Source: Candidatus Omnitrophota bacterium
Lineage (GTDB): Bacteria > Omnitrophota > Gorgyraeia > Gygaellales > Profunditerraquicolaceae
NCBI GenBank assembly: GCA_041648915.1
Contig: JBAZOC010000003.1
Coordinates: 1 to 56,564 of the forward strand
Length of the DNA: 56,564 nt
Direction: 5' to 3'
Part shown: piece after piece, positions 231 to 41,207 of the stretch
How the letters are laid out: the number at the start of each line of letters is the position of its first letter
How positions within the stretch are numbered: the first letter of the stretch is position 1
The notes under the pieces: model-generated
The model's database searches: none
Seen by the model: the letters and a program-made list of their open reading frames with translations, nothing else
What the model was told of the DNA's origin: nothing
Made by a program: the position numbers and the translations under genes

Positions 231-238
231 AAAACTGA

Positions 239-700: not shown

Positions 701-722
701 TAGCTACCCGATAAATACAAAT

Positions 723-796
723 TGCGCCCAGCAGGATTCGAACCTGCAACAACCAGCTCCGTAGGCTGATGCTCTATCCAGTTGAGCTATGGGCGC
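723..796 (-). tRNA. tRNA-Arg(ACG): tRNA-Arg, anticodon ACG, CCA not encoded
   Basis: Reverse complement GCGCCCA-TA-GCTC-AACTGGATA-GAGC-A-TCAGC-CTACGGA-GCTGG-TTGTT-GCAGG-TTCGAAT-CCTGC-TGGGCGC-A. All four stems pair; the anticodon loop reads C-T-ACG-G-A. Confidence 0.9.
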
Positions 797-6039: not shown

Positions 6040-6045
6040 AATTTG

Positions 6046-6666
6046 TTATCCAATCCATAGACCTTCCAGCCGTGCCTGTAAACCGGCAGGGGTACGGTTA
6101 AGATAATTGACCAGGCCGCTGTGCCTCCATTGCAGCATGCACCTGCGCGGCTGAAAAAAATAACGTATTCCTATTTTAACTTCGCAACGGCTATCCTGGA
6201 TTAATCCTTCATAGGCCAACGCAACATAATATCCTAAATCCTTAAAACTTTTTTGCCGCGGAGTAAGCGGGCCGGTAACGCACCAGGCCATCACGCCGGT
6301 TTTTTTATCAACATCCATAATTATGCCGGAATGCGTCACCGGGCAACCGCAAGATACTCCTAATGGCCGGCCGATGATTATTTCTCCTGCCTTAAGGTCC
6401 ATTTCGCGGGTAAGCGTCGGATTATGCGGAATAATGATTTCCCGCGGGCCGGGTTCCTCGGGAAAATGATCCAGGACAAAATCGAATTCTCTCCCTAAGG
6501 AATCTTTCCAGGCCGCCGGGTTATTCCCAGCGGTTTCCTGCTTTATTTTTTCTCCGCTGGCTTGGGCATAAATACAATTTTTGATTAAAGCGGGGTTTTC
6601 TTTTAACTGCTCATAGAACTCAGCGCAGGTACGAAATCCACACCCTCCGCAATCTTGCATCTTCAT
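6046..6666 (-). CDS. Fe-S cluster domain protein (RnfB / corrinoid Fe-S protein N-terminal-type CX2CX4C domain)
   Basis: 206 aa. N-terminal MQDCGGCGFRTCAEF; later GVSCGCPVTH. An ATGA overlap with the upstream GTPase gene lies at 6663..6666. Confidence 0.55.
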   Translation of the reverse strand: MKMQDCGGCGFRTCAEFYEQLKENPALIKNCIYAQASGEKIKQETAGNNPAAWKDSLGREFDFVLDHFPEEPGPREIIIPHNPTLTREMDLKAGEIIIGRPLGVSCGCPVTHSGIIMDVDKKTGVMAWCVTGPLTPRQKSFKDLGYYVALAYEGLIQDSRCEVKIGIRYFFQPRRCMLQWRHSGLVNYLNRTPAGLQARLEGLWIG

Positions 6667-7364
6667 TCGCCCCTGTAGAAAAGCTGGTTATCCAAAGTCC
6701 TCACTACCCCAAAGTGCTGCTTCCAGCCGATTTCTTTTTTACCCACACAAACAGTGCAGGTCCCCACAGGAGGGTTCCCCCGCAGGTAAAGGGGGAATTT
6801 TACATCACGGGAATTATAAATCATTTTTACTATCGGCTCAACCCCTATTCCATGCAGCGCATCGGATTCAATAATCCGCATCCCCGGGCAGGCCTCCAGT
6901 ATCCTTGCCCGGAAGACTTCTCTTTCGGCTTGAGAAATTAAATCAATTTTAGTAACTACCGTAATATCCGCCAGCGAGAGCATCGGCCCGATCTTTCTCG
7001 GCAAGTTCATTCCGCTGGTGGCCTCAAGCACTACCATGCCAAACGCTCCCTCAACATAAGGAGAACACCTAAGGCACAACCCTGCCGTTTCCACCACCAG
7101 CGTTGTCGCTTTTTCCTTGCCTGCCCATTCCACCGCATCGCCTAATACCATCACGTTACAATGATCCGGGCAAAGTTCTCCGGAATAAACTTTTTTGACC
7201 GGAATGGAAAATTCCCGTACGAAGAATTCATCCTCGGTGGCGAATTGAACATCGGTTTTAACGAACGCAACGCTCTCCCCTTTATCCTTAAGCCTCTTTA
7301 TAACATGTTTTAAGATAGTAGTTTTACCGGTTGTCGGAGGGCCTGAGCAAATTACTAATTTCAT
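6663..7364 (-). CDS. G3E-family P-loop GTPase (HypB/UreG/CooC/CobW/MeaB-like metallochaperone class)
   Basis: 233 aa. Walker A SGPPTTGKTT; VETAGLCLRC at the position of the HypB ENVGNLVCP segment; G4-like TKID. Extra Cys pairs CPDHC and CTVC. Confidence 0.65.
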   Translation of the reverse strand: MKLVICSGPPTTGKTTILKHVIKRLKDKGESVAFVKTDVQFATEDEFFVREFSIPVKKVYSGELCPDHCNVMVLGDAVEWAGKEKATTLVVETAGLCLRCSPYVEGAFGMVVLEATSGMNLPRKIGPMLSLADITVVTKIDLISQAEREVFRARILEACPGMRIIESDALHGIGVEPIVKMIYNSRDVKFPLYLRGNPPVGTCTVCVGKKEIGWKQHFGVVRTLDNQLFYRGE

Positions 7365-8155
7365 TACGGCTCCTTAAGATGGGATTTAGTAATAACTTCT
7401 CCGCTACGCATATGCGACCTTAAGCGCAATAACAGATCATCAATCTTTTTAACATGCTCGACTACTTCCTTTTCTTCTCCGTTAGTAACAATCACTTTTT
7501 GCATCGAGCCGCTCTTCATAATTATCCGAAAGTCAGAAAGAAGTATAATCCGGGGGTCATGAGTAACAAAAATAAAAATTTTCTTATACTGTTTTAAAAG
7601 CTCCAGGACCTTGGTGCGGTGGATACCGGCATTTTCGATCTCGTCTAAAAGGATTATTGGAGACTCTCCGATTACTACTGCGTCTGCAATCATAAGCGCG
7701 CGCGTCTGGCCACCGGAGAGTTCGGTCATCGCGCTATGCGTATCAATAGGCTCTCCGGTTAACTGGTTTGCAAATATGAGCGTTTCGTTTACGATCGAGT
7801 TTTCTCTGCCGGAACCGCGGATAGAAGCATGTGTGGCTAAAAAATCCTCCACCCGCATATCAGAAAGAAAATTCGTATGCTGGGTAATCAAGGCGATCAG
7901 CCGGTCTGAGGGCATAGGGCAATATTCTTCGGAAGGCACTATGCCATTAAGCATAACCGTACGCTGCGAAGGCGTATTTTTATTCGCCAAGAGCTCGATA
8001 TCTTTTATCAGGGTAGTCTTGCCTGAACCGGTAGCGCCCACAATACTGACTACCTGGCCCATCTTAAATTCTACTTCCCGGACCGGCTCAGGCTGCCTAT
8101 CCTTGCCATAACCGCCAAGAATACCAATACGTTCCAATCTGGCTATCTTCTCCAT
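7364..8155 (-). CDS. ABC-type ATPase with no cognate permease in the window
   Basis: 263 aa. Walker A GATGSGKTT; Q-loop ITQH; signature LSGGQ; Walker B IILLDE; H-loop VTHD. The stop overlaps the next start as TAATG at 7362..7366. Confidence 0.85.
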   Translation of the reverse strand: MEKIARLERIGILGGYGKDRQPEPVREVEFKMGQVVSIVGATGSGKTTLIKDIELLANKNTPSQRTVMLNGIVPSEEYCPMPSDRLIALITQHTNFLSDMRVEDFLATHASIRGSGRENSIVNETLIFANQLTGEPIDTHSAMTELSGGQTRALMIADAVVIGESPIILLDEIENAGIHRTKVLELLKQYKKIFIFVTHDPRIILLSDFRIIMKSGSMQKVIVTNGEEKEVVEHVKKIDDLLLRLRSHMRSGEVITKSHLKEP

Positions 8156-8222: not shown

Positions 8223-9551
8223 TTACCAGCGTAATTTTTTCCTTGCCACAAGGTAATGCTTAAAGTTATACCCTAGCCTATCCACCCTAAGCTGGTGGTA
8301 ATAAGTGATACTTTCCCTGCGCCAAAAAAATAAAATAGTCAATAACGCATTAAATGACAAATTGAATTTTTCCTTTAATTTTTTAATAACATTCTTATAA
8401 GCTGGCATTTTTAAAGGGTAGTATTGATTTATGTATAAGATATCGGCGTTAATTTTTTTGGCAAAAATGAAAGTCTTTAACTTATCCCTTAAGTTTTCGC
8501 AGGGGAAATCTAAAATAAAATAAGCCGCAGTTTTAATACCTTGTCTCTTGGTCATCAGCACTGTCTGCAGCGACTCTTTTACCGTGATCCCCTTATTAAC
8601 AATTTTTAATGTTCTATCATTCCCCGATTCAATCCCGTAAGAAATAAGCGAACACCCTGATTCTTTCATTAAGCGCAGCTTGGCTTCATTCATACTATTA
8701 ATCCTGGAATTACATTTCCAGATTATTCCTTTTATATCTTTCAGCCCCGAGCATAAATCCTGGCACCTGGAGCTATCTTCAAAATAGCCATAATCCCTGA
8801 TAAAAAAATCAGTATAACCAAACTCCTTATTTAATACCTTGATTTGTTTCAACAAATACTCTGGTGAATGGCATAATACTTTATCCGATAAAGAAGATTT
8901 GCAAAATTTACAGTTGTGCGGGCACCCCCTGGCCCCAATAATATCGATGAACTCCTTTCTTTCCCTATAAGCGCTATCCCATAGATAACCCCCGAGTTTC
9001 TCCCATCTAGGCGGCGGCAATTCATCCAAAGTCTTCATTGTATTACGGGGAGGATTTTTGAAAAATATACCTTGGGACTTATAGTAAATCCCTTTTATAT
9101 TTTTAAGGTCTACCGGCGACTTGGCCTGCGTCTTAACTATTTCCAATACTCCGTATTCCGGCTCATCAAATAAAATACAATTTATTTCAAGCTGCAAGTA
9201 CATCTCGGTATAAATATTGGAAGTTTCTCCGGAAAGCATAATAAAACTTTTTGGATTATTCTTTTTGATTTCCGTAATAATTTCTTTTATCAATCCAGGA
9301 GTTTTTAAGAAATTCTGGAAATGGTAACTTTTACCGGTTGTATTAATCACATAATAATCGGCATTTATCTCGTTTATGCGCCTTCTAAATTCATCTTTGG
9401 TTATTTTTTCATTTTCAATATCCAAATAAAAAACCATTACCCCCTTATGCTGTAAATACGACTCCAGGTAAAGCATATCGTAAGGCGGGCGGTTCACGGG
9501 ATACCTTATCCCGGAGATATAATCTAACGGGTTAATTAATAAGATAGACAT
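8223..9551 (-). CDS. B12-binding-domain-like radical SAM enzyme
   Basis: 442 aa. N-terminal MSILLINPLD domain; ARGCPHNCKFC cluster motif. The N-domain looks more diverged than in the other copies. Confidence 0.75.
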   Translation of the reverse strand: MSILLINPLDYISGIRYPVNRPPYDMLYLESYLQHKGVMVFYLDIENEKITKDEFRRRINEINADYYVINTTGKSYHFQNFLKTPGLIKEIITEIKKNNPKSFIMLSGETSNIYTEMYLQLEINCILFDEPEYGVLEIVKTQAKSPVDLKNIKGIYYKSQGIFFKNPPRNTMKTLDELPPPRWEKLGGYLWDSAYRERKEFIDIIGARGCPHNCKFCKSSLSDKVLCHSPEYLLKQIKVLNKEFGYTDFFIRDYGYFEDSSRCQDLCSGLKDIKGIIWKCNSRINSMNEAKLRLMKESGCSLISYGIESGNDRTLKIVNKGITVKESLQTVLMTKRQGIKTAAYFILDFPCENLRDKLKTFIFAKKINADILYINQYYPLKMPAYKNVIKKLKEKFNLSFNALLTILFFWRRESITYYHQLRVDRLGYNFKHYLVARKKLRW

Positions 9552-9629: not shown

Positions 9630-10634
9630 TCATGCATAATCAAGGCAGGCTCCGTTGCATTCATTGCCTGCGAGATATATACAACTACCTGCGGTATTCA
9701 AAATACACTGCCTCCCTTGTTCCTCAAAACTTACTTTATAAAATCCGCTTAATTGAATAAGCCCCGGGAAACTTAAAATACTCTCCGCTTTGTTTAAATT
9801 TTTAAAACAACCAAAGACGGAAAGATCGGGATTAATAACTACACGGGAGGCATAGTTGCCTCGGTAGCCGACAAAACATTTTGACTTTACAAGAATAAGC
9901 CTCCTTAATTCCTGCCATTTCTTAGCGTCAAAAAAACACCTCGGCAGTGGCCTTGCCAGATAAATATAGATATTTTCTTTCAGGCATTGTTTTGCAAATC
10001 CCTCAGCAAAAAATACTAAAGAACGTATTTTTTCCGCATCTATCGGCTTCTCAAGCCCGGTGGATGAATTTATAATTGCTATCCTTATCCTTGCCCCTAA
10101 TTCCCTGGCTATCGGCCTGATCCAATTTATTGTGTCCTCATCGGTTGTAGCTATATTTACCCTTAAGATTAATTTAGTCCCATGCTGGCTTAAGAATCTA
10201 AGTTTATCCAATAAATCTGATCTCTTTTCAGCGGAGTACCTAGTCGAGCAATTAACAAAAAGGACATCAATATTCTTAGCAACAGCTTCATTAATATTCT
10301 TACCGTAAGCGCAATTAGAAGCCATATAACAGGCAAGGTTAGCCTTTTTGGATAAGCTCATAATATCCGCGAATCTGGTGTGTTGGGTTGGTTCGCCACC
10401 TACAAACATTATCTTATGGATCCTTTGCTTTTTAATCCAGCCGAGTAATTTAATAAAGTTATCAATACTCATTTCCTCCTTAAAAATACCGCCTAACCCC
10501 TGGGCATTGCAATAAAAACAGCCCATAGCGCACTTATAAGTTAAGGCCACAATTAATGGCAAAGCAGGATAATGCTCCTCTATAAGGAATAATGCTTTTC
10601 TCCGGATATTAAACAGATAGTTATGCAGAGTCAT
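9630..10634 (-). CDS. Radical SAM enzyme with Cys-rich SPASM/twitch-like C-terminal half (paralog family 1)
   Basis: 334 aa. LTYKCAMGCFYCNA; VGGEPTQH. Family-specific ARPLPRCFF and VVINPDLSVFGC. C-terminal Cys cluster CILNTAGSC...CNGAC. Confidence 0.8.
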   Translation of the reverse strand: MTLHNYLFNIRRKALFLIEEHYPALPLIVALTYKCAMGCFYCNAQGLGGIFKEEMSIDNFIKLLGWIKKQRIHKIMFVGGEPTQHTRFADIMSLSKKANLACYMASNCAYGKNINEAVAKNIDVLFVNCSTRYSAEKRSDLLDKLRFLSQHGTKLILRVNIATTDEDTINWIRPIARELGARIRIAIINSSTGLEKPIDAEKIRSLVFFAEGFAKQCLKENIYIYLARPLPRCFFDAKKWQELRRLILVKSKCFVGYRGNYASRVVINPDLSVFGCFKNLNKAESILSFPGLIQLSGFYKVSFEEQGRQCILNTAGSCIYLAGNECNGACLDYA

Positions 10635-11618
10635 ATTTATATACCAGGCATCCCCCTTGGCAGGAAAGTTCCTTATAATACCGGCAACTATAGCATTCGC
10701 CCTTTAAGGGTTTCTCCCTGAGAATATCAACTTTATCTTTAAAATATCTCCCCAGTGCATTAATATCCTTAAAATTAAATAGCGCAGGGGCTTTAGATAA
10801 AGCGGCATAGCAGACATATACCGACAGGTCGGGATTAACAACGGCCCGGGAAGTATAATTTCCTGAGCATCCCAATAGACACTTGCTTTTTGCCCCGCCA
10901 AAACTTATTAAATACCCCCATTCCTTTTCCGTAAATAGGCAGCGGGGTAATGGCCTGGAGAAATGCGCTTTTACCGAATTCAGCCTGGCGAGTCTCACAA
11001 AATCGATAATCTGATGTTTATAGGCAGCCATATCTGCAAAGGAGTAATGCTCATTCTTAAAGTCGAGTGAAGGAACAGTAAAACCAAATCTTACGGAAAC
11101 TGAATATTCCCTCGCCATATCAAAAAGCAGCGCATAATCTATGGGTTCCTTACGGAGATTATACCGCAACATGATAATCTTTTCCTCTATCCCGAGCATA
11201 TTTCCTCTTACCATATGATAGGAGCTATCAAGATTGATGTTCAGGACTAAAAAAAATTTTTATTTTTTATATATGCTTTAAGTTCCGGAGTTATCGAGAG
11301 CCCATTAGTAAGGATATGGGTATTAAACTTCAGTTTATCGCAAAGCGCTAAGATACCTTTTATATCTTTATGTATAAATGGCTCACCACCCGTGAGTATG
11401 ATCTTCCTGATATTTTGTTTTTTGAGCCACAAAAGGACCTTCCTGAAATCTTCCAATTTTATATCGCTGCCCGTTTCCCTATCCTCTCTGCTTACTGAAC
11501 AATACACGCAGCTATTATTGCAACGATAAGTTATCGCAATCCTGAATTGCGGATACCCTTCCAGCCTGTTCTTGAGCAAATAGAAAATTTTTTGGTTAAG
11601 GTACTTTTTAAGGGCCAT
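10621..11618 (-). pseudogene. Paralog family 1 radical SAM gene interrupted by a frame change at a T8 run. It may be a pseudogene, an assembly error, or a recoded gene.
   Basis: ORF 11247..11618 (123 aa) carries ITYRCNNSCVYCSV and TGGEPF. ORF 10621..11214 (197 aa) carries SRPLPRCLF, VVNPDLSVYVC and CYSC...CQGGC. Together they match the length and order of the 334-aa paralog at 9630..10634. The frames meet at A8 (+ strand 11249..11256). Confidence 0.6.
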
Positions 11619-11619
11619 C

Positions 11620-13077
11620 TTACAGGTCGCGGATTAAATATCTATGCCTTCTAGCTTCACGGCGCGTGATCACGAAAATAGCTTTTTTAAATATATTCTT
11701 TATTATATGGGCATAAAAATACAGATATAGCCTTCTCAGCAGGGTTCTTCCCGAAAAAAATCTTAAATAAATATAAAAAGGATGCAAGTAATATTTATAC
11801 AGTATCTTTTTTTTCTTCTTTAGAGCCTGCTTAACGTTAACATCATCGGAAGAATGGGGACTAAAATAGAATAATCTCTTATAGTCCTTATTTTCCGGTC
11901 CCTTGCTCAATATCTCCGGCAAAAGAGCGACATTGGGCCTATAGACTTGGATTGTGACGAAATCACATAACTGATTTATTTTTTTAAGAGACATCGATTC
12001 TTCTTCTAATTCTCCCGGGTAGCCGATAATAAATGACCCCTCCACTAAAATATTGTTTCTCCTGAGGATATGATAAGCTTTTTTAAAATTGGCATGATTA
12101 TATAGCGGGCCTTTTGTCTTACCAGGCGCCGTTAGCGCCTCGTTACCGGAAGATTCAAAACCTATTAAGGCCAGTTTCATTCCAGCGGCAGCTGATTTCT
12201 TAATCAAGTCAGGAAACTTTAATACCGTATCCATTCTGACCGGTACCTTCCAGCTTATTTTTAAGCCGCTCCTCTCTATTAATTCGCATAAAGCATAATC
12301 CTTAGCGGGTAGTATACCGAAGCTTGCGGTATAAAACCAGATTTTCTTTATATTCATGCCAGCGAGGATTTGCAATTCCTGTAAAATTCTTTGGTTTGAT
12401 TTTCTGCGGTAAGTAAAATTCCAATACCTGCTGGTAAGGCAAAAGTCACACCGGTATGGGCACCCCCTGGATAATTCCATGCTTCCTGTATAAGCATTTG
12501 AACTCCCCGGGAAAAAAGAAAAATAATTTTTAAAATTAATGAGATCAAATCTGGGAAGGGGAGTTAAATCCAGATTATCGATCATCGGCCCTAGGGCATT
12601 AACTATAACTCTACCGTTATCTTTATAGGCCAGGTTCTTCGTATTCCTATAATCTTCGCCTTGTTTTAAGTGTTTGATTAATTCCCCAAAGTAGAGCTCA
12701 CCTTCATGCAGTAATATGAAATCCGCCCCCAGCTTAAGCCATCTCTCATAAAAAAATGTCGCATGATACCCTCCCATAATAATCTTGATCCGGGGGTAAT
12801 GTTCTTTTATGAGTCTTATATTTATTTCACAATCCCTGGATGCGTAACTGGAACGTATAGAAATAACAACTATATCAACCCCTTTTAATCTATCCAGGAA
12901 TTCTTCTGGCGAAATGTTTTCTACCAGGCCATCTATTATTTTCGTTTCCTCATCGGGTATATAGGAAGCGAGCTGCGCAAAGGTAAGAGAAGGTGCGGAG
13001 AGATAAGCAATTATTAAATTGCTTGCGATACTAAAACGTTCAGTAAACCTAAGCGGGATTAAGAATAAGATCTTCAT
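11620..13077 (-). CDS. B12-binding-domain radical SAM enzyme
   Basis: 485 aa. MKILFLIPL N-domain with IIMGGYHATFF; LSRGCPYRCDFCLT. Confidence 0.8.
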   Translation of the reverse strand: MKILFLIPLRFTERFSIASNLIIAYLSAPSLTFAQLASYIPDEETKIIDGLVENISPEEFLDRLKGVDIVVISIRSSYASRDCEINIRLIKEHYPRIKIIMGGYHATFFYERWLKLGADFILLHEGELYFGELIKHLKQGEDYRNTKNLAYKDNGRVIVNALGPMIDNLDLTPLPRFDLINFKNYFSFFPGSSNAYTGSMELSRGCPYRCDFCLTSRYWNFTYRRKSNQRILQELQILAGMNIKKIWFYTASFGILPAKDYALCELIERSGLKISWKVPVRMDTVLKFPDLIKKSAAAGMKLALIGFESSGNEALTAPGKTKGPLYNHANFKKAYHILRRNNILVEGSFIIGYPGELEEESMSLKKINQLCDFVTIQVYRPNVALLPEILSKGPENKDYKRLFYFSPHSSDDVNVKQALKKKKKILYKYYLHPFYIYLRFFSGRTLLRRLYLYFYAHIIKNIFKKAIFVITRREARRHRYLIRDL

Positions 13078-13091
13078 AGGATTTCAAGATA

Positions 13092-14459
13092 CTACGCGAT
13101 TTTACCTGCTTCCCTGTAAATCTCATAGAGGCAGGTAGGCAGGCTTCTTTTATTATCCAAAGCAGTATGCATATTGCACGTTTTTATCAAGGACAAATCT
13201 AAATTATGCTTATCCGGGAACTGCCCTACCATTATGCTCAAAATATTAAAAAACATAAAATATAGGCTCTGGAAGCTTTTCGGATGTTTTAAATTATATA
13301 GAAAATTATCTAAAAAAACCTTAAGTATTTTTCTATTAAGTACTATTCCGGATAAAAACAGATACAGATCCCTGCAGAAAACTAACCGTATAATATTAGA
13401 TAATATGTTTTTTCTAAAATTAACCCTTTGCTCTAAGCTCTCTAAATAGGAATTTAATTTCTTTAAATCTACGAAAGAATCCAGAGGTAAATAACCCCTG
13501 CCGCGCCGGATCAAATAGCAGGAGACTGAACAGGGCGGCTCTTTAATCCCTTTTCTGAACTTCATTTTTCTTAATATTTCAAAAACATAAGTGCTGAACC
13601 TTGTGCAGTCGATAAAATATTCTTCGCCTATTTTTAATTCCCTGCAGACCATATTCAACATACCAGCAGAATTTAATTCTTCTTTTGACGCCTGCCTGCC
13701 GATATTCCATAAAGGGTTAAAAAAGAGTATCTTGACGTTATCGTTCTGAAGAGCAAAATCAAACAACTCTATAATTCTTCCGCTATTGATCCCCTCTACC
13801 ACGTTAACGTAAAGCATTAAACATAAAGCGTGCTTCCTTAGGTTATTTACCGCCCTGGTTTTACTCTCCAGCAGTTCTTCCCCCCTTATCTTAATATAAT
13901 CCGAGTCGCTTAGAGAGTCAAATTGAAGAATCACAACGTCTAAACCCGCCTTCTTAAGCCCCTTAACGTAATCTGGATTAACAAGTTTTTTGCCATTAGT
14001 GAACAATACTACCTTGAATCTATTCTCCTTAATTTTCTTGATAATCTCAAACAGGTCTTCCCTCAAGGTGGGCTCGCCTCCGAAGAGGTAGATAATCCCT
14101 CCTGAAAAGCTCTTTGCCCGGGCGACTATTTCTTCCGTGCTGGGCTCTTCTCCGACCTCCTCGTTAGCATTAACAAAACAATAGGGGCAATACTGGTTAC
14201 ATTTTCTGGTAAGATAGATAAGCAGCCCTTCGGGGGAGGCGTTCCTATTTCGATGCAGTTGAGCAAGAGTATGGTAAATGCTAGGATTACTCAATAAATG
14301 GAGAGATTTGAAAGTACCGTCTTTATTACAATGCTTGTTTAACCATATCTTTCCGTCTTCTTCAACTACCTCGGCATCTACAATTTCCAGGCATTGCGGG
14401 CATAAACACTTTATTTTTTTTATAAACTGGCCTTGCACGGGGAATTCCTCGCTACTCAT
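13092..14459 (-). CDS. Radical SAM enzyme with MJ0619/COG1964 (Tes / GDGT-MAS-like) architecture
   Basis: 455 aa. An N-terminal Cys knuckle CLCPQCLEIVDAEVVEEDGKIWLNKHCNKDGTF precedes LTRKCNQYCPYCF and FGGEPT. C-terminal FPDKHNLDLSLIKTCNMHTA...PTC segment. Family recognised from memory, not searched. Confidence 0.6.
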   Translation of the reverse strand: MSSEEFPVQGQFIKKIKCLCPQCLEIVDAEVVEEDGKIWLNKHCNKDGTFKSLHLLSNPSIYHTLAQLHRNRNASPEGLLIYLTRKCNQYCPYCFVNANEEVGEEPSTEEIVARAKSFSGGIIYLFGGEPTLREDLFEIIKKIKENRFKVVLFTNGKKLVNPDYVKGLKKAGLDVVILQFDSLSDSDYIKIRGEELLESKTRAVNNLRKHALCLMLYVNVVEGINSGRIIELFDFALQNDNVKILFFNPLWNIGRQASKEELNSAGMLNMVCRELKIGEEYFIDCTRFSTYVFEILRKMKFRKGIKEPPCSVSCYLIRRGRGYLPLDSFVDLKKLNSYLESLEQRVNFRKNILSNIIRLVFCRDLYLFLSGIVLNRKILKVFLDNFLYNLKHPKSFQSLYFMFFNILSIMVGQFPDKHNLDLSLIKTCNMHTALDNKRSLPTCLYEIYREAGKIA

Positions 14460-14477
14460 ATTTAAGTATAAACCGTC

Positions 14478-15281
14478 TTAGACGAAAGAAGGGATTAATA
14501 ACAAACCGTAGGCTATGCCGGCATACCTTAAGATCGACCTTATCTTTTGCGCAGAAATGATATTAAGCGCCTCTTTCTTATCAATTCCTTTTATGCATAT
14601 AAAAAAGAAAAAAATAAATAAATAAGAAACCAGAATAAACAGGACGCTCATTTCTAAAAAATTATAGATAAAAAACGTATACGCTAACAGGATAAATAAC
14701 AAACAATATATCTGCCTTAAATAAACCTTAAATTTTCTATTATTGTACCCACGGTTATCTTCTAAAAAATGAGCTATCTCGTGTAGTATCTGGTATGGAA
14801 ACATCACCAGCATAAAGAAGATAGTTAATGCGCAAACTCCCGGATTGAATTCTAATGAAATAACCAACGCTCCGAAAAGAAAAAGTAACCCGAAGGTATA
14901 ACCATTCAATAAAACGCTGAATAAATGATACTTTTTCCATAAATATCCCGGATGTACATAAAGGATATTTAACACAATAGCTACCAGGAAAAATACAGCT
15001 GCGGTCTTAACTAAATATACGCTCCAGAGAATAAATACTCCCAGCATTACCAGAGAAAGAAAAATTCTTTTCGTATCCCCCGAATCACAAAACCGGTTAT
15101 AAGAGTATCCGCCCGCTAAATATAAAGATGCCGCTAAAATACCCGCTATCATTTTAAGGGGATCAACAGTATAGCTCTTACTGGCATAGGCTAGGCCCAG
15201 ATAGACGAAGCCCAAATGATAGAACCATTCTTTAACCCTATAACACCCCAAAAATCTCTCAAGATATTCAGTTTTAATCAA
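14478..15281 (-). CDS. Polytopic membrane protein, UbiA-prenyltransferase-like. An HExxH membrane metalloenzyme is the alternative.
   Basis: 267 aa, about 8 hydrophobic segments. NRFCDSGD (N-X3-D-X2-D) at residues 62-69, after TM2. Acidic loop HEIAHFLED at residues 167-175. These positions match the two Asp-rich loops of UbiA enzymes. The start codon at 15281 is TTG, so the start is uncertain. Confidence 0.4.
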   Translation of the reverse strand: MIKTEYLERFLGCYRVKEWFYHLGFVYLGLAYASKSYTVDPLKMIAGILAASLYLAGGYSYNRFCDSGDTKRIFLSLVMLGVFILWSVYLVKTAAVFFLVAIVLNILYVHPGYLWKKYHLFSVLLNGYTFGLLFLFGALVISLEFNPGVCALTIFFMLVMFPYQILHEIAHFLEDNRGYNNRKFKVYLRQIYCLLFILLAYTFFIYNFLEMSVLFILVSYLFIFFFFICIKGIDKKEALNIISAQKIRSILRYAGIAYGLLLIPSFV

Positions 15282-15386: not shown

Positions 15387-16433
15387 ATGCTTCTCCTCCA
15401 TCCGCTCTTAGCGAAGATATTTCCTGGAACATTCTACGTATTTCCGGAGAAAACGCGTAGGACCGCAGGGATAGCCTTAACCTATACTTGCCAGGAAAAT
15501 TGTGGCTACTGCCTCGCTAAAAACCTACCCCCGGCCTTTCCTTCCCATATAACACTTGAAGATTTTAATAAATCCCTCCAATGGCTTATCCAGCAAAATT
15601 TTTCTTTTATCACCATCGTAGGAGGAGAACCGACTGCTCATCCGCAGTTTTTCGAAATCTGCAATATAATAAAGCTTGCTATAAAGAATACTCCGAAATT
15701 ACAAATTCTCCTAATGACCAGAAATTTTATCCTAAAACATATCTTTGATAATATCGCTGAATATAAAAATAGATTCTTCATTCAAGTGAATCTTTCTAAT
15801 GATGATTTAAATTCTACGGAAAAATTGAAAACCTTAAGCGATAGTTTTAATTATATCAGGGATAAAGGCGGGTATCTATCTGTCCGGACGGTCCTGCAAG
15901 ACGAAAAGGACAATAATTTTGAGCTGCATACACTCCGGCTTATTGATTTTTTATCTTCTCATAAATTAAACCTAAGATTTTCTTTCGATAGCTGTATACG
16001 GATTAGCGAAAAAACCATGGCTATCAGGGCAGAAAAAGCTATAAATTTTATAGAAAACTGCATCCGGAAAAGGGTTCGCGTAAAACTCGTAAGATCTATC
16101 CCCTCGTGTTTTTTCGACCGAACCCAGCTAAAAAAATACTCTGATTACCTACTCCTTAACTGCTTTAAAGGAACCCACGAACCTTTGCCGCATTTTGTTA
16201 TCAACCCGGACCTTTCATCTTTTATGTGCTGCTCTGCCCATTACCGGATTAAGGATATACTGCAATATGAGTCAATCTCCGGATTACTTGAAGGATATAA
16301 GGCCTATTTAACCAGGTATCTCTCTGAACCGGCATTCCAACGGTGTGCCAAATGCGATAAATTTAAAAAAAGGGTGTGTTTAGGAGGATGCTTGGGGCAA
16401 CGCGGAGGAATTGAAAAGATTATTGATATTTAA
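15387..16433 (+). CDS. Radical SAM enzyme, paralog family 1 (inverted orientation)
   Basis: 348 aa. LTYTCQENCGYCLA; VGGEPTAHP; RSIPSCFF; VINPDLSSFMCC; C-terminal CAKC...CLGGC. Confidence 0.8.
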   Translation: MLLLHPLLAKIFPGTFYVFPEKTRRTAGIALTYTCQENCGYCLAKNLPPAFPSHITLEDFNKSLQWLIQQNFSFITIVGGEPTAHPQFFEICNIIKLAIKNTPKLQILLMTRNFILKHIFDNIAEYKNRFFIQVNLSNDDLNSTEKLKTLSDSFNYIRDKGGYLSVRTVLQDEKDNNFELHTLRLIDFLSSHKLNLRFSFDSCIRISEKTMAIRAEKAINFIENCIRKRVRVKLVRSIPSCFFDRTQLKKYSDYLLLNCFKGTHEPLPHFVINPDLSSFMCCSAHYRIKDILQYESISGLLEGYKAYLTRYLSEPAFQRCAKCDKFKKRVCLGGCLGQRGGIEKIIDI

Positions 16434-16436
16434 TAA

Positions 16437-17561
16437 TTATAACCAATAGGCTACACATTTATCCATATTTTCGGGTTTTCCCTTTTCCCAGGGGCCAAGA
16501 CAATAAAAACATTTTTTGTTGTATTCATCTAAGACTATTTTATTGCCGGCTTTGCAACCGCCGCGGCAATAATTTACAAAAGAACAAGAAAAACAATCCG
16601 CCGGCGGATTGTAGATTTTTTCAAACTCTCCTACGGTAAATCTCCTTCTAAATATTTCAAAGATATTTTCTTTGAATGCATTGCCCAAAACAACATCGTA
16701 AATAAAAGGACAATGCGTAACTGTCCCATCTACTTTTACGGAAACCATAAAATAGCCGCCAAAACAAGTATGGCCGGTAAATTTAAACATATTATATACA
16801 TCAGACATATGCTCAGGGCTTATCTTTCTTAATAAGCCTTTAAGCTTATACACGTCTTTTGCGGGAAGCTGCAAAGCGATATCTTCATCTTTCACGGGTA
16901 TCTGGTTGAAAAATAGAGGCCTTGCGCCGAGGCCTCTTACTAAATTATTTATTGATTCAACATCTGCAAAATTATTTTTATTAACAACTGTAAATGTATA
17001 AGTTTTAATCCCTGCTTGCAGCAATGCCTTAAGCCCGGAAATTTTATTATCAAACGTACCCTCGCAATCTGAAATATTATCCTGGAGATAGGGCCGGTTG
17101 GAATAAAAAGACACAAACGCCGTATTTAACCCGGATTGTTTTAACTTTATTGCTGCTTTCGGATCAATCAGCGTACCATTTGTAAACATCGTAACAAGCC
17201 TTATCTTCCCCTTTTTCTTCGCTGTTGTTATAATTTCATAGATATCCTGCCGCAACATAGGTTCTCCGCCTAATAAATCCAGCCTGTGCACAAAACCCTT
17301 TACTTCCAGAAATAATTTTATAATATCCGATAATACCGGCTCAATATCTCTCCTTTGCGAATAACAATATGCGCATTTCCTATTACATCTTTCCGTGAGA
17401 TCAAGCTTTAAATGCAACAGGAGTCCGTCTCCCATTAACCTACGGAAGATAAGCCTGATTAACTTAGAGGTAATTTTACCTTCATCATACTTTTTCATGC
17501 CATAGCTAAGCAACACTGCAGCGGCAATACCTCTTATTTTACGAATCTGCTTTATCCCCAT
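16437..17561 (-). CDS. Radical SAM / SPASM-domain enzyme
   Basis: 374 aa. LTERCNRKCAYCY; LGGEPM. SPASM-like C-terminus CFGGY...DGTVTHC...CFSCSFVNYCRGGCKAG. Confidence 0.8.
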   Translation of the reverse strand: MGIKQIRKIRGIAAAVLLSYGMKKYDEGKITSKLIRLIFRRLMGDGLLLHLKLDLTERCNRKCAYCYSQRRDIEPVLSDIIKLFLEVKGFVHRLDLLGGEPMLRQDIYEIITTAKKKGKIRLVTMFTNGTLIDPKAAIKLKQSGLNTAFVSFYSNRPYLQDNISDCEGTFDNKISGLKALLQAGIKTYTFTVVNKNNFADVESINNLVRGLGARPLFFNQIPVKDEDIALQLPAKDVYKLKGLLRKISPEHMSDVYNMFKFTGHTCFGGYFMVSVKVDGTVTHCPFIYDVVLGNAFKENIFEIFRRRFTVGEFEKIYNPPADCFSCSFVNYCRGGCKAGNKIVLDEYNKKCFYCLGPWEKGKPENMDKCVAYWL

Positions 17562-17562
17562 G

Positions 17563-18657
17563 CTAAAAACTCCAATCTTCCTTTTCAGACAAACACCCCC
17601 CCTGGCAAATATCGTTTAAATAATCTGGACAATTTACGCATTCCTGTGTTAAGGGTATTTTCCGTAATCTTAGATAATGACCCTTGTAATAATCGCTTAA
17701 GTCCTTGATTTCCTTAAAAGAAGTTATGGCCGGCCCCTTTATGGGGACTCCGTAACAGCCCATTATAGACAAATCCGGATTAACCACTAACCTCGCTGCA
17801 TAATCTCCATTTTTACCTATATAACATTTAAATTTAATAGCGTTTTTTTTGTATTTTTTAATCTCTTCCTGATTGAAAATACATTTTGGCACCGGCCTGG
17901 CAAAAAACGCAGATACCCTCTCCTTATCGCAGAAGTCTAAAAATTCAATAATCTTATCTTTTGGATACATCTCCCTGAAGTTTTCATTTTTCTTTGCTCC
18001 TTTTTGGCAGCTCACTGGGCTGTTAATTGCCGAAAATCTAATCCGCGCGTTAATTTCTTTAGCGATTTTTACTATATTATCGAAATCATAATTGTCTTTA
18101 TACATATTGTAGCGTAATATAACATTGCATTTAGCATTATATAACCTTCTAATATTATCATAGGCTAAAGCGTAACTACGGCCTCTGTAGGTAGCCGGAT
18201 TATTTATATTGGCCTGAACGACTAAATACCTCTTATAATTAACCATAGCTTGGATGTTTTTTTCATTACATAGCACATTTGTAAGTATGGCAATGCGCAT
18301 TTTGTTATCCTCAGATATCCTAAGTATATCCCTGAAGTCAGGATGTAGCGTCGGCTCTCCGCCTAATAAAATAATTTTATCTTTTTTGTTTTTACGCAGC
18401 CACTTTAATATTTTCTCAAAATTATCCAGTGAGATATCCCCGTAATTTAATTCCGCTCCTTTTTCATAACAATACTCGCACCCTAAATTGCATTTATGAG
18501 TCAAAATGATATTTATGCCGTTAAAAAACATATGTCTCCTGGAACAAAAATCATTGATGGCCCTCGTTAACGGTGGATATCTTCTAGTTATAGACGAATG
18601 AATATAAACCCCGACCTTCCTTAGTTTTAAAGGTATTATATCTTTTAAAATAACCAT
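17563..18657 (-). CDS. Radical SAM enzyme, paralog family 1
   Basis: LTHKCNLGCEYCYE; LGGEPTLHP; ARPVPKCIF; VVNPDLSIMGCY; CVNC...CQGGC. The start is moved to the ATG at 18657 (GAGGA 8 nt upstream). The ORF-track start at 18696 is a TTG lying inside the upstream gene. Confidence 0.8.
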   Translation of the reverse strand: MVILKDIIPLKLRKVGVYIHSSITRRYPPLTRAINDFCSRRHMFFNGINIILTHKCNLGCEYCYEKGAELNYGDISLDNFEKILKWLRKNKKDKIILLGGEPTLHPDFRDILRISEDNKMRIAILTNVLCNEKNIQAMVNYKRYLVVQANINNPATYRGRSYALAYDNIRRLYNAKCNVILRYNMYKDNYDFDNIVKIAKEINARIRFSAINSPVSCQKGAKKNENFREMYPKDKIIEFLDFCDKERVSAFFARPVPKCIFNQEEIKKYKKNAIKFKCYIGKNGDYAARLVVNPDLSIMGCYGVPIKGPAITSFKEIKDLSDYYKGHYLRLRKIPLTQECVNCPDYLNDICQGGCLSEKEDWSF

Positions 18658-18667
18658 CGCTTTTTCC

Positions 18668-20338
18668 TCATCTGTTACTTTTAAAATAAAGCTCAACCAG
18701 AATTCCGTCTTTTGCGATAAACGTTTGTTTTTTAAAACACTTAGCGAGGACAGATCTTACCAGAATAGAATTATAAGAGAGATTAGCCTGTTTATCCCAA
18801 ATGGATGAAATCAACCAAATACGCTGTGCTTCAATTTTTCCTAATGGATATTTTTTAATCAACCTGTTATTAGCCCTCTGAAATAATGCATTGCCATCTT
18901 GCGCAGAATACCTGTCGGTAAGCCTCATAAAATGTAGCTCCCTTTTATCATCTTCGGGAAGGACGTTTATCAACTCATCCATCCGCAGGTATTTTTTTTC
19001 TAACTCAGTTAGAGCAAAAGGATAAAAAAGAAAATATCCCATACGGGGATTATTATTGCTAAAATAGATAGAATTATGTGCGTTAAAGTAATAAATACTG
19101 ACGATAGCAAACGATTGGACATCCGTAGTAGCAATGAGGTCATTATCTTTAATCTTGCCGTCTAAATCCGCTAATAAATTCCCGTACGTTTTTTTCTGAT
19201 GTATCCCTATGTAGAATTCCTTTCCGCTTTTTGAAGGAAGCATAAAACCCCTATAATAATTAAAAAGCGTAAATACCAATACCCCTACCACCCCCGCTCC
19301 TATTAGGGCCTGGATACTTTTATTTTTGATACTTCCTACCCCTTTAGCAATTAAAAGATAGTAGAAAGGAGTAAATATGAGAAACTGCCTGGTAATATAA
19401 ATAGGCGTTTGCCAGATAGAAAAAAGATATGTAGTAGTAATGGGGAGGGTAACAAATAAAAAAAGCATAACGGCATATTCTCTGTTTATTTTATAAAAAG
19501 AATAAGTCCCGTATATAAATAATGTAAAAAATAAAACTAAGCCCGCGATGAACTCAATATACCCTGCAGAATATCCAAGGTTAAAAACAGCCAATGTAAT
19601 AAAAGTATCTTTTAAACTTGGTTTGAATAACCAAAAACCATCCTTTATGAAGTTATAATGATGGATAAACAGTAACGCCAGCGGTAAAAGCAATATTGAA
19701 ACAGCTAAGATGGACAAAAACCATCTCTTTAGGTTATGGTAGTTATTTTTTGAAAAAACCAGTAAGCCTGAGATAACGACCAAAAAAATAGAATAATAAC
19801 TAAGATATATGGCAAGGGTACTGGATATTGCGAATAAAAACCAATGCAACAGCTTGCCTATGCGCAAGGCCTGTATATAAAAATACGCTGCTAAAAGTAT
19901 AAAAAATAAAGCCACAGTATACGCCCTTGCCTCCTGGGCATACCAGATATGGAACGGGCTAAGGGCCATAAGCAAGATAGCCCATAAGCTTTCTGAGCGC
20001 TTAAGGAATATCCGGGATAACTTATAAAATACGGCCAGCGAAAGAACGCTGAAAATAAGCGAGATCACTCTTAAAGATTTCCCTCCCCCAAAAATAGAAC
20101 TATAACCATATACTAAAAAATAATATAAAGATGAATGGCAATCACGAGAAATACGATACATATAAATCGGGAGAGAATTAGATTCTGCTATCTTCATTAC
20201 TTTTTGTACTGAATACATATCCGATGACAATTCATCGAACCAGAGATCATATTTGTTAATGCCCTGGATCCTTAAAGCTATCCCAAGCACAAAAATTGCA
20301 AAAATAAATCCGGCGCCAATACTTTTATGCATTATCAT
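18668..20338 (-). CDS. GT-C fold membrane glycosyltransferase (ArnT/PMT, GT39/GT83-like)
   Basis: 556 aa, more than 10 hydrophobic segments. First-loop acidic motif YDLWFDELSS; ALSPFHIWYAQEARAY matches the paralogs at 33244 and 41208. Soluble C-terminal domain. Confidence 0.7.
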   Translation of the reverse strand: MIMHKSIGAGFIFAIFVLGIALRIQGINKYDLWFDELSSDMYSVQKVMKIAESNSLPIYMYRISRDCHSSLYYFLVYGYSSIFGGGKSLRVISLIFSVLSLAVFYKLSRIFLKRSESLWAILLMALSPFHIWYAQEARAYTVALFFILLAAYFYIQALRIGKLLHWFLFAISSTLAIYLSYYSIFLVVISGLLVFSKNNYHNLKRWFLSILAVSILLLPLALLFIHHYNFIKDGFWLFKPSLKDTFITLAVFNLGYSAGYIEFIAGLVLFFTLFIYGTYSFYKINREYAVMLFLFVTLPITTTYLFSIWQTPIYITRQFLIFTPFYYLLIAKGVGSIKNKSIQALIGAGVVGVLVFTLFNYYRGFMLPSKSGKEFYIGIHQKKTYGNLLADLDGKIKDNDLIATTDVQSFAIVSIYYFNAHNSIYFSNNNPRMGYFLFYPFALTELEKKYLRMDELINVLPEDDKRELHFMRLTDRYSAQDGNALFQRANNRLIKKYPLGKIEAQRIWLISSIWDKQANLSYNSILVRSVLAKCFKKQTFIAKDGILVELYFKSNR

Positions 20339-20514: not shown

Positions 20515-22065
20515 CTATTTTTTAAGGATAACAAATAACAGGCTGGTAAAAAAAAGGATAAAAATTATCTTAAAATAGATCCTGCGGGTTATAAAAAGAT
20601 TATAGAGAAATATCGTAATATCCCTCTCTTTCATCCAGAAATAAGCATACCCTAAAATATAATTCTTATGTAGGGCAGTAGTGACCAAATATGTTATTAA
20701 CCCCTGCTTTTTACTTACTAAAAATGATGCCTGCGGGAAAAAACAAAATTTACCTTTTGCGTTAAGTTTAAATTTCATGCCTTCCTTGTTCCCGTAACCT
20801 AGCCGTTCTAAGCGTTCGAATTTTTTCTTATAATATAGCTGCTCTTTCCTCTTTAAAACTTCGTCTAAATTAATTTCGCCTGAAGAGATAAGGTTTTGGC
20901 ATAGTTGGTTTGCCATATTTTCGTCATAGTTTTTCATCCCTACCCAGATGGGCAGCCGATCTTTACTTAAGGCTTTCATATATAAAGCCAGGTTATACCA
21001 ATTATAGTATTCTGTCCCGTTCCAACGTGACCAGGTGCGCGGCCCAAAGGCAATAACATCCAGCCTTCTATTTAAACATAAACCAGTGCGGTTAACTAAA
21101 TCATTCTTTATATATTGTGAATAATCAATCGTGGCATACTCTTTGCTTAAGATGACTTCGGCTAAACACCGTATTAATAATGAATCTTTGTATGTAGGGA
21201 AAAGATTAATATGCTTATGGTATAGTTTATAGACTGGCAGGCGGTTTACTATTAATGAATTCAAAGAAATTGAGGTCGGCAATAACCTTAAAGTTTCTTC
21301 TAAATCACTCTCCCAGTTAATTAATGTCTGGCCTGGAGAATTGAATAAAAGATCTATGTTTATATTTTGAAAATTAAATGAGCGTAATATACCCATAGTC
21401 TCAAGAATGTGGCTTTTTAAATCCGCTCTCCCTATTAATTTCAGAATTCCTTTATCAAAGGTCTGAACACCTAAACTGATAGAATTAACGCCGTTCTGCC
21501 TTAACATTAGAAAAGTATCTTTTGCTTTAGCAGAAGTTTCTGGTTCGATCTCAATAAGGACCTGGACATCCTTGCTTAAAATAAATTCATCTTTAATTAA
21601 TCTCAGTAAATCTTCAAATTGATCCCTTTTTAAAATAGAAGGGCTTCCTCCCCCTATATATACCCTTTTTACCAGCAGTCGCTTAAAATCTACTGTATCC
21701 TGCAGCAGAGATATCTCTTTTTTTAAAAAATATAAATAAGTACTTAACTCCTCAGGGTTATGGTATTGACAAGTATAAAAAAGGCAATAAGAGCATCTTT
21801 TTAAACAAAACGGTATATGAAAATACAAACTAACTTCTTTAATATTGCCGTTCAAACCCTCTTTACTGTCTATAAAAATGTCCTCCGGTTTTATCAAGCC
21901 AAAGTTATAAAAAGAGTGGACTATGCAAGAATACAGAGGGCTAAAGGGAAGTAAATATTTTATCCTTCTCTTATAAAGAAGAGGATCATTTAAATCAAAG
22001 CCTAATTCAAGAAGCTTGTTGTTAGCCTCAGTAATATTATGGCTTAGGGTTTTAGGCATAATCAT
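20515..22065 (-). CDS. HemN-like (class C type) radical SAM enzyme with hydrophobic C-terminal tail
   Basis: 516 aa. YFHIPFCLKRCSYCLF (HemN/HemW signature); YIGGGSPS. C-terminal IFLYNLF...KIIFILFFTSLLFVILKK. Confidence 0.8.
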   Translation of the reverse strand: MIMPKTLSHNITEANNKLLELGFDLNDPLLYKRRIKYLLPFSPLYSCIVHSFYNFGLIKPEDIFIDSKEGLNGNIKEVSLYFHIPFCLKRCSYCLFYTCQYHNPEELSTYLYFLKKEISLLQDTVDFKRLLVKRVYIGGGSPSILKRDQFEDLLRLIKDEFILSKDVQVLIEIEPETSAKAKDTFLMLRQNGVNSISLGVQTFDKGILKLIGRADLKSHILETMGILRSFNFQNINIDLLFNSPGQTLINWESDLEETLRLLPTSISLNSLIVNRLPVYKLYHKHINLFPTYKDSLLIRCLAEVILSKEYATIDYSQYIKNDLVNRTGLCLNRRLDVIAFGPRTWSRWNGTEYYNWYNLALYMKALSKDRLPIWVGMKNYDENMANQLCQNLISSGEINLDEVLKRKEQLYYKKKFERLERLGYGNKEGMKFKLNAKGKFCFFPQASFLVSKKQGLITYLVTTALHKNYILGYAYFWMKERDITIFLYNLFITRRIYFKIIFILFFTSLLFVILKK

Positions 22066-41198: not shown

Positions 41199-41207
41199 AA
41201 TTAAGCT

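Follow-up and report, generated by a model that had tools for sequence, protein, structure and literature searches.

A UbiA-linked clade of Tes-like radical SAM enzymes in a conserved Omnitrophota gene block: a candidate lipid-tail tailoring pathway

In this study, we analysed a 56,564-nucleotide stretch of DNA from a Candidatus Omnitrophota bacterium (contig JBAZOC010000003.1, positions 1 to 56,564; hereafter the window) and focused on three adjacent minus-strand genes. They encode a UbiA-like membrane protein, an enzyme of the radical S-adenosylmethionine (SAM) class resembling the tetraether synthase Tes/GDGT-MAS, and a B12-binding radical SAM enzyme, called B12a here (Table 1). A preliminary description of this DNA had proposed that the three genes form a module for coupling or branching lipid tails. 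The three open reading frames (ORFs) lie where it placed them, with gaps of 18 nt (14460-14477) and 14 nt (13078-13091), and the motifs it quoted are present, namely the knuckle, the cluster motif and C428/C443 at the C-terminus of the Tes-like protein, and N-X3-D-X2-D and HEIAHFLED in the UbiA-like protein.

To our knowledge, Tes/GDGT-MAS is the sole family for which the joining of two unactivated lipid tails by way of an intermediate bound to an iron-sulfur cluster has been demonstrated, and GDGT-MAS is the only structurally characterised radical SAM enzyme that couples lipids by a C-C bond. The Tes-like protein aligned over its full length with GDGT-MAS (MJ0619) of Methanocaldococcus jannaschii (PDB 7TOL/7TOM) at E=1.2e-40 for 7TOL, whose sequence was rebuilt from HMMER alignments and checked against the residue numbering of PMC9433317. 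The Pfam matches of the protein were Zn_ribbon_HMPTM (E=2.7e-12) and Radical_SAM (E=1.9e-22). An AlphaFold model built from 30 relatives (pLDDT 90.4, pTM 0.91) was compared with known structures by Foldseek. The results showed a match to 7TOL at a TMq of 0.81 with 26% identity, while the next structures (SkfB, HydE, SuiB, MoaA and viperin) reached at most 0.40 and corresponded to the barrel core. Because these other structures match the shared core alone, the C-terminal domain of the model is GDGT-MAS-specific. Its helical region is hydrophobic, with a grand average of hydropathy (GRAVY) of +0.37 vs -0.13 for the whole protein, and in this resembles the part of GDGT-MAS that forms the lipid pocket. 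Profile and model evidence together place the Tes-like enzyme, over its full length, in the GDGT-MAS/MJ0619 (COG1964) superfamily.

We then read the ligand columns from alignments of 50 to 180 relatives, with subfamily conservation taken from 36 members. The rubredoxin-like N-terminal knuckle is C20-x2-C23-x20-C44-x2-D47; its three cysteines are invariant, and as fourth ligand the window copy has Asp47, where 25/36 relatives have His. The radical SAM cluster motif (C87-x3-C91-x2-C94) and the GGEPT motif are present, and F95, R192 and R255, which correspond to the SAM/5'-deoxyadenosine contacts F106, R210 and R275 of GDGT-MAS, are kept. C310, C428 and C443, equivalent to the C-terminal [4Fe-4S] ligands C338, C455 and C470 of GDGT-MAS, were invariant in 36/36 members, and an additional Cys314 was found in 29/36. 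A C-terminal [4Fe-4S] site formed by C310, C314, C428 and C443 is predicted from these columns. The N-terminal [4Fe-4S] site of GDGT-MAS (C73/C77/C80/H83) is gone from the clade through a deletion of about 22 residues. Three further columns have changed: Met439 to Gly412 in the window copy (Gly in 30/36), Tyr459 to Thr432 (Thr/Ser/Ala in 34/36), and Ser271 to the clade-specific Trp251 (Trp in 34/36). As for the expected Fe-S sites of GDGT-MAS, the radical SAM and C-terminal sites were recovered, while the N-terminal site, together with Met439 and Tyr459, was not.

The family placement was assessed by profile scores and phylogeny. On the NCBIfam Tes model (NF045702), the Tes-like protein scored 194.4 bits, below the cutoff of 450, and on the TrsS model (NF045646) 188.6 bits, below the cutoff of 490; true Tes controls (P0030 and P0178) scored 698 and 593 bits on the former, and TrsS-clade controls 454-490 bits on the latter. 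With sequences clustered at 50% identity, an exhaustive single-protein search gave 211 clusters below an E-value of 1e-30 and 1529 below 1e-10. The neighbour-joining tree resolved four groups, namely Tes with TrsS, a planctomycete-type clade of 510 aa, a large radiation of 420-460 aa without the N-terminal cluster and, nested in this radiation, the window clade. The Tes clade excluded the window clade in 100/100 bootstrap replicates, and the window clade excluded the N-cluster-bearing proteins (Tes, TrsS and the 510-aa clade) in 99/100. A hidden Markov model (HMM) of the subfamily gave 502-623 bits for member loci vs 172-305 bits for other family loci, and this clean score gap sets a large distinct clade apart from Tes and TrsS. 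Tandem full-length paralogues are present in some relatives, and shorter radical SAM genes of Tes origin (about 356-422 aa) in others, so that the enzyme seems to have been duplicated and specialised repeatedly within the module.

Three identities were rejected. A canonical Tes orthologue was ruled out by the HMM score, the absent N-terminal cluster, the absent Met439 and Tyr459, and the phylogeny, and TrsS by score and clade. A SPASM peptide maturase was also rejected, as no SPASM match was found in Pfam and SkfB and SuiB matched the core alone (TMq 0.40). Accordingly, the preliminary assignment to the MJ0619/COG1964 superfamily rather than to the SPASM maturases was borne out, and the proposed likeness to Tes/GDGT-MAS held for superfamily and fold, not for the characterised Tes clade. 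On sequence grounds, the clade belongs to neither the Tes nor the TrsS equivalog family, and shares their superfamily.

The UbiA-like protein was characterised in the same way. It scored 33.7 bits on Pfam UbiA (PF01040), whose gathering score is 34.2, and precomputed PF01040 matches were present on its orthologues and relatives. A single-sequence search returned five relatives only, and the alignments (A1, A5) were extended with copies adjoining Tes-like genes in other loci. The AlphaFold model (pLDDT 86.6) is all-helical with about 9 membrane helices, compared with about 8 in the preliminary description. The first Asp motif is N62-x3-D66-x2-D69, the last Asp spacing being off by one relative to NDxxDxxxD; N62 is invariant and D66 occurs in at least 90% of sequences. 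In the segment H167-E-I-A-H171-F-L-E-D175, motif 2 takes the form H171-x3-D175. The invariant or near-invariant residues would correspond to the UbiA first Asp motif (N62/D66), the central Y...K...N (Y108/K116/N126) and the second motif (H167/D175). The window copy and its Omnitrophota clade carry H-x3-D for DxxxD and a 5-residue deletion, and have lost the GxxTxA stretch. DxxxD plus TTA is retained in relatives from three loci (L006, L007 and L089), and archaeal and WOR_2 copies have both features.

The family profile of the UbiA-like protein matched AfUbiA (4TQ3) at E=3e-6. In Foldseek, the best match of the model was digeranylgeranylglyceryl phosphate (DGGGP) synthase (7BPU, TMq 0.74), followed by 4tq3-6 (0.65-0.72) and by 4od4/5 (ApUbiA), UBIAD1 and 8j8j (0.62-0.68), with other folds below 0.5; decaprenyl-phosphate phosphoribosyltransferase was among the matches after 7BPU. 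For distant members, models of archaeal prenyltransferases, of DGGGP synthase and of chlorophyll synthase gave matches at 1e-13 to 1e-15, with scores well short of the cutoffs. The window copy had no NCBIfam match, DGGGP synthase (NF009521/NF009522, cutoffs 296/353 bits) included, and its relatives scored at most 50 bits. The gene was therefore not assigned as an orthologue of DGGGP synthase or of decaprenyl-phosphate phosphoribosyltransferase, for which HMM support was absent or negligible and fold likeness was all that remained. Sequence profile and model support membership in the UbiA superfamily, and catalysis by the window copy is plausible. Of the earlier UbiA proposal, the superfamily and DGGGP synthase as best fold match stood, and the second Asp-rich motif proved degenerate. 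Thus, of the two findings that would have spoken against the preliminary description, neither was made: the Tes-like protein did not group with SPASM maturases, and UbiA profile and fold similarity was present.

To examine the linkage of the two genes, we searched with the UbiA-like HMM around Tes-like genes. A UbiA-like neighbour lay within 10 kb in 10/12 independent subfamily loci, which span Omnitrophota, Altiarchaeota and an archaeal-looking contig. A GTDB genome scan based on the subfamily alignment, with the pattern GGEPT[LV]RxDL, added one close locus (L009); because the pattern is superfamily-wide, almost all returns were canonical, N-cluster-bearing relatives, and the remaining 79 loci served as the negative control. 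In these loci of other family members from named genomes (76/79 with the N-terminal cluster motif), a UbiA-like neighbour within 10 kb was found in 0/79. Given 10/12 vs 0/79 loci, the juxtaposition is not due to chance. The reciprocal start, from archaeal UbiA-like relatives (L092 from Aenigmarchaeota, and L093), led to adjoining COG1964-type, B12-binding and SPASM radical SAM genes together with ATP-grasp, PMT_2 and DegT genes.

B12-binding radical SAM genes were near the Tes-like gene in all subfamily loci, often with GT-C glycosyltransferases. The close Tes-like homologues (51-69% identity) come from Omnitrophota metagenome-assembled genomes. In L001/L002, L003, L009 and L091 the same order is kept: a radical SAM gene of the 17563-18696 type, the UbiA-like gene, the Tes-like gene, B12a, the 331-aa SPASM-type radical SAM gene, a radical SAM gene of the 9630-10634 type, and B12b. 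In L001, as in the window, this order is preceded by a PMT_2 gene and followed by genes for an ABC ATPase, a CobW GTPase, an Fe-S protein and a variant radical SAM enzyme. The distant members (34-40% identity) belong to Omnitrophota (L005, L089 and L090), Altiarchaeota (L004 and L007) and the archaeal-looking contig of 318 kb (L006), and they too adjoin a UbiA-family gene and B12-binding radical SAM genes. Several distant loci also have Tes-like paralogues in tandem or truncated form, GT-C genes of the PMT type, or genes for sulfatase-fold and CysD/N-like proteins, and PMT/PMT_2 genes flank the module in L004/L007 and in L093. The trio is the core of a conserved block of roughly 14 genes; the module of the preliminary description is conserved, but forms only part of a larger conserved operon.

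Two sets of neighbours were seen beside the distant modules. Genes for sulfatase/phosphodiesterase-fold proteins, CysD/CysN-like sulfate activation and TauE adjoin them in L089 (7014-12564), L090 (6669-11237), L004 (13221-15882) and L092 (15068-16762), which hints at sulfated or phospho-transferred head groups. Aminotran_4 or ATP-grasp genes lie inside the modules of L005 (10441-11355), L090 (3294-4190), L006 (9374-10510) and L092 (634-1764), possibly reflecting an amino-acid-derived head group or acceptor.

B12a was confirmed as the B12-binding radical SAM enzyme first described, with PF02310 at 44.2 bits (cutoff 32.1) and PF04055 Radical_SAM at 55 bits. Its best NCBIfam models were all far below cutoff, namely BchE (129/481 bits), HpnJ (97/578) and HpnR (68/650). 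In all close relatives, B12a directly follows the Tes-like gene on its downstream side, and orthologues with 41-63% identity occupy the same position in L001, L003, L009 and L091. Radical SAM enzymes that bind B12 cyclise as well as methylate (GrsA/B, BchE and HpnJ). Of the proposed C-methylation, the class B assignment was retained, and branching became one option.

The remaining genes of the block are listed in Table 1. The SPASM-type gene downstream of B12a, about 331 aa long and intact in relatives, is split in the window. Alignment to the L001, L003 and L091 orthologues and the DNA at 11210-11270 located a frameshift in a T8 run (junction about 11214-11250), within the A/T homopolymer aaaaattttttttag; the split is either a homopolymer sequencing error or a true pseudogene. 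Directly upstream of the UbiA-like gene in L001 lies an orthologue, 70% identical, of the 17563-18696 product, which also occurs in L008, L009 and L091. In the window, two radical SAM genes stand between these two; their homologues are found in L009, L091 and L001 in positions that are not fixed. The block tail (4885-8155) is kept in the same order in L001 (14204-17398) with 73-85% identity, and may be a cofactor and metal delivery set for the numerous B12 and Fe-S enzymes.

Table 1. Coordinates of the genes considered, in the window unless a locus (L) is named
Feature	Coordinates	Strand	Size	Remarks
PMT_2 membrane glycosyltransferase	18668..20338	minus		GT-C fold; head of block; 62% orthologue at same place in L001
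Radical SAM, SPASM-like C-terminus	17563..18696	minus		Pfam; conserved upstream of UbiA-like gene
Radical SAM, SPASM	16437-17561	minus		variable partner
Radical SAM	15387-16433	plus		variable partner
UbiA-like gene	14478..15281	minus	267 aa	TTG start; divergent UbiA-superfamily membrane protein
Tes-like radical SAM gene	13092..14459	minus	455 aa	Tes/GDGT-MAS-fold enzyme, distinct subfamily
B12a, class B radical SAM	11620..13077	minus	485 aa	B12-binding + Radical_SAM
SPASM-type radical SAM	10621..11618	minus	~331 aa in relatives	split here: 11247-11618 + 10621-11214
Radical SAM, Cys-rich C-terminus	9630..10634	minus	334 aa	Pfam; orthologues 34-67% in L001, L003, L008, L009, L091
B12b, B12-like radical SAM	8223..9551	minus	442 aa	Radical_SAM + weak B12-binding; orthologues in L001, L003, L008, L091
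ABC-type ATPase	7364-8155	minus		block tail; no permease nearby
CobW-family GTPase	6663-7364	minus		block tail
Small Fe-S protein (PF04060)	6046-6666	minus		block tail
Variant radical SAM (NF045502)	4885-6039	minus		block tail
HemN-like radical SAM	20515-22065			
UbiE/TehB-type methyltransferase	4205-4942			
Peptidase_U32-family protein	29458-30642			beside B12-binding radical SAM genes
Peptidase_U32-family protein	53186-54205			beside B12-binding radical SAM genes
Peptidase_U32-family protein	54223-55401			beside B12-binding radical SAM genes
Tes-like paralogues	L009 8532-11326			
Tes-like paralogues	L007 6671-9350			
Tes-like paralogue	L005 9344-10423			
Tes-like paralogue	L090 2218-3300			
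Tes-like paralogue	L006 5248-6522			

In the whole window, nearly all genes lie on the minus strand as one island. The Pfam tally comprised 21 radical SAM genes (8 with a B12-binding match), 5 PMT_2, 3 family 2 glycosyltransferase (GT2) and 3 U32 genes, together with sugar-nucleotide enzymes. This density of radical SAM genes beside envelope glycosyltransferases is unusual, and the trio is the best-defined core of a larger envelope-related island. A cassette at 38415-42791 encodes a DegT-type aminotransferase, a short-chain epimerase/dehydratase of the SDR type, a GT2 and a PMT_2. Its domain content is similar to that of the ArnB/ArnA/ArnC/ArnT scheme, where a GT-C enzyme transfers an amino sugar carried on polyprenyl phosphate. 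Another PMT_2 gene (32139-33762) is split between two frames, with 33244-33762 corresponding to residues 12-143 and 32139-33254 to residues 156-413 of the paralogue at 41208-42791. The U32 family includes the O2-independent hydroxylases UbiU/UbiV; the U32 protein at 29458-30642 gave no NCBIfam match, and for the other two the scan covered Pfam alone. A tadA-type tRNA adenosine deaminase gene (239-700) lies between tRNA-Ser(GCT) and tRNA-Arg(ACG) (window 139-796), the latter being the classical TadA substrate. An Rfam scan of the window found these two tRNAs only, and no riboswitch, the cobalamin type included.

We compared these genes with known systems. The Tes-like enzyme shares with GDGT-MAS/Tes the four-part architecture and fold, the knuckle, CxxxCxxC, the F/R/R contacts, the three C-terminal cluster cysteines and the hydrophobic helical C-terminus. 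It differs in lacking the N-terminal cluster, Met439, Tyr459 and Ser271, in having C314 and, in the window copy, Asp as fourth knuckle ligand, and in its UbiA linkage, which canonical Tes loci do not show. TrsS belongs to the same superfamily, its length (about 440-460 aa) is comparable, and its model gives the window protein a similar score, whereas the TrsS clade has the N-terminal cluster cysteines and Met439 and groups with Tes. The UbiA-like protein resembles DGGGP synthase (7BPU) and AfUbiA (4TQ3) in fold, N-x3-D first motif, central Y...K...N and about 9 membrane helices, and differs in its 14-17% identity, H-x3-D second motif and deleted GxxTxA stretch. Mss of Thermotoga/Thermoanaerobacter, compared by description only, is a functional analogue, being a bacterial radical SAM enzyme that couples two lipid tails; it is only remotely related to Tes (PMC13159169), and Mss homologues are reported from some Omnitrophota metagenome-assembled genomes (PMC11868695). 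Bacterial Tes homologues have been noted before, their membrane-spanning lipid production being biochemically untested (PMC8941075, PMC11868695, PMC13459092), and an earlier pterin-methylase assignment of MJ0619 was not corroborated (PMC9433317). In the literature on COG1964, Omnitrophota radical SAM enzymes and bacterial Tes, we found no account of a UbiA-linked clade without the N-terminal cluster.

The known toolkit for glycerol dialkyl glycerol tetraethers (GDGTs) includes the B12-binding GrsA/GrsB and Gmm and the SPASM/twitch enzyme Gms, and such radical SAM classes are reported to cluster with the Tes-family gene in archaeal and some bacterial tes/mss clusters (PMC11214058). The window has the same enzyme classes beside its Tes-family gene, but its B12-binding and SPASM radical SAM proteins match generic models only, at low scores, so that the likeness is one of enzyme class. 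With this limit, the block appears to mirror the toolkit, with the UbiA-like protein in the place of DGGGP synthase, the COG1964 enzyme of Tes, the B12-binding enzymes of GrsA/B and Gmm, and the SPASM enzymes of Gms (PMC11214058, PMC9433317).

Taken together, we favour the reading that these genes are the core of a conserved pathway tailoring the tails of membrane lipids, isoprenoid or alkyl and most likely isoprenoid, with a C-H activation or coupling step of the GDGT-MAS type, and give it a little under an even chance. It builds on homology, fold, metal-ligand conservation and synteny, with each step of the mechanism reasoned by analogy. GDGT-MAS acts on a saturated phytanyl chain, where it takes hydrogen from a terminal sp3 carbon, holds the substrate radical as a C-S bond on its C-terminal cluster, and forms the C-C bond with a second SAM-derived radical (PMC9433317). 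The Tes-like enzyme probably works in the same manner. It retains exactly the parts needed for this mechanism: the radical SAM cluster, the C-terminal cluster and the hydrophobic C-terminal region. The features it has lost are peripheral or dispensable in GDGT-MAS. In the proposed pathway, the UbiA-like protein, placed in the membrane, would act like DGGGP synthase and attach or present a polyprenyl chain on an acceptor bound to the membrane, and the Tes-like enzyme would draw the lipid tail into its hydrophobic C-terminal helical domain. Cleavage of SAM at C87/C91/C94 would generate a 5'-deoxyadenosyl radical that takes hydrogen from an unactivated sp3 tail carbon, and the substrate radical would be parked on the C-terminal [4Fe-4S] cluster (C310/C314/C428/C443), as in GDGT-MAS. 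A second SAM would provide the second radical for a C-C bond, giving tail-to-tail coupling or a macrocycle. Methylation or cyclisation of the chain could fall to the adjacent B12-binding enzymes, with further cross-links or oxidations added by those of the SPASM type. The product would be a membrane lipid or a glycolipid anchor for the neighbouring GT-C/GT2 glycosyltransferases.

In favour of this pathway are the full-length sequence and fold homology to GDGT-MAS, the specific, reciprocal linkage to a protein of the UbiA family that matches DGGGP synthase best in fold, and neighbours that are membrane and head-group enzymes (GT-C, GT2 and LtaS/EptA-type sulfatase-fold proteins), not peptide or cofactor genes. 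Several points weigh against it. We know of no clade member with a known substrate or product, and the Tes-like protein is below the Tes equivalog score and outside the Tes clade. The window contains no genes for isoprenoid-chain synthesis, saturation or glycerol phosphate. Because H-x3-D replaces DxxxD and GxxTxA is lost, the window UbiA copy may be something other than a conventional prenyltransferase. The Tes-like protein has no N-terminal cluster, Met439 or Tyr459. The two residues are invariant in 1000 archaeal homologues; however, the M439A and Y459F/L variants of GDGT-MAS are active (PMC9433317). Finally, the module is found as well in archaea whose phyla have canonical Tes, which argues for a product other than ordinary tetraethers; the product is probably not simply a bacterial version of a GDGT.

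Of the rival explanations, the one that survives best, although we consider it unlikely, keeps the scaffold and a lipid-type substrate and assigns other radical chemistry, with no two-tail coupling, on a polyprenyl or alkyl chain or on the polyprenyl-phosphate sugar carrier of GT-C enzymes. The options include insertion of a sulfur donated by the auxiliary cluster, ring closure within one molecule, desaturation and formation of a hydroxyl precursor. The active-site changes agree with it (W251 for S271 in 34/36, Thr/Ser/Ala for Tyr459, Gly for Met439 together with Cys314, and the lost N-terminal cluster), as does the recurrent PMT/PMT_2 link, given that GT-C enzymes use polyprenyl-phosphate sugars. 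That L005, L007, L009 and L090 have Tes-like paralogues in tandem or truncated form points to several distinct steps. A C-S(cluster) intermediate arises in GDGT-MAS itself, which lets go a thiolated lipid when SAM is limiting (PMC9433317). However, the three C-terminal cluster cysteines and the whole two-pocket C-terminal fold, which the coupling mechanism needs, are retained, and there is no direct evidence for any alternative reaction.

Synthesis of a prenylated cofactor or pigment is improbable. Here, the UbiA-like enzyme would prenylate a quinone- or tetrapyrrole-like aromatic or macrocyclic head group, and B12-binding and HemN-like radical SAM enzymes, U32 proteins and a SAM methyltransferase would tailor it anaerobically. 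Distant UbiA-like members match ChlG/BchG models nearly as well as DGGGP synthase models, the best NCBIfam match of B12a is BchE, and the window has a HemN-like enzyme, three U32 proteins and a UbiE/TehB-type methyltransferase. These matches are far below the family cutoffs (BchE 129 vs 481), though, and the U32, HemN-like and methyltransferase genes lie outside the block conserved with the Tes-like gene. Genes for chorismate, futalosine or tetrapyrrole head groups are absent, and no part played by the Tes-like fold in making cofactors is known.

That the radical SAM genes tailor an envelope glycan, peptide or protein, with the UbiA-like protein as a non-catalytic or unrelated membrane partner, has a slim chance: glycosyltransferases, sugar-nucleotide enzymes and 21 radical SAM genes, many of the SPASM type, dominate the window, the sugar-modifying BlsE and DesII are among the weaker fold matches, and the second Asp motif of the window UbiA copy is degenerate, but the Tes-like protein lacks a SPASM/twitch domain and its C-terminal domain matches GDGT-MAS alone, the tightly packed operon leaves no space for precursor-peptide ORFs, a specific UbiA linkage, recovered from either gene, spans bacteria and archaea, and archaeal UbiA-like copies retain canonical DxxxD.

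Returning to the lipid-tail tailoring pathway, a bolder and rather doubtful extension is that Omnitrophota and Altiarchaeota/DPANN-type archaea share it as a hitherto unrecognised route that makes or remodels membrane-spanning or macrocyclic isoprenoid (glyco)lipids of a new class. A UbiA-type enzyme would install the chain, the two-cluster Tes paralogue would couple tails, and the B12-binding and SPASM enzymes would add rings, methyls and bridges. Because several carrier lineages are ultra-small and host-dependent, the pathway might even act on host-derived lipids.

These findings describe a Tes-like clade whose cofactor complement differs and whose specific genetic partner is the UbiA-like protein. 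With the N-terminal cluster, Met439 and Tyr459 all absent, the clade is a natural experiment on which parts of GDGT-MAS are needed for catalysis. The locus offers a concrete set of 3 to 8 genes for expression, as a testable candidate pathway for lipid-tail modification and not a true tetraether synthase. It also gives a lead to the lipids of Omnitrophota and DPANN/Altiarchaeota, lineages with poorly known membranes, whose lipids could confound tetraether-based environmental proxies.

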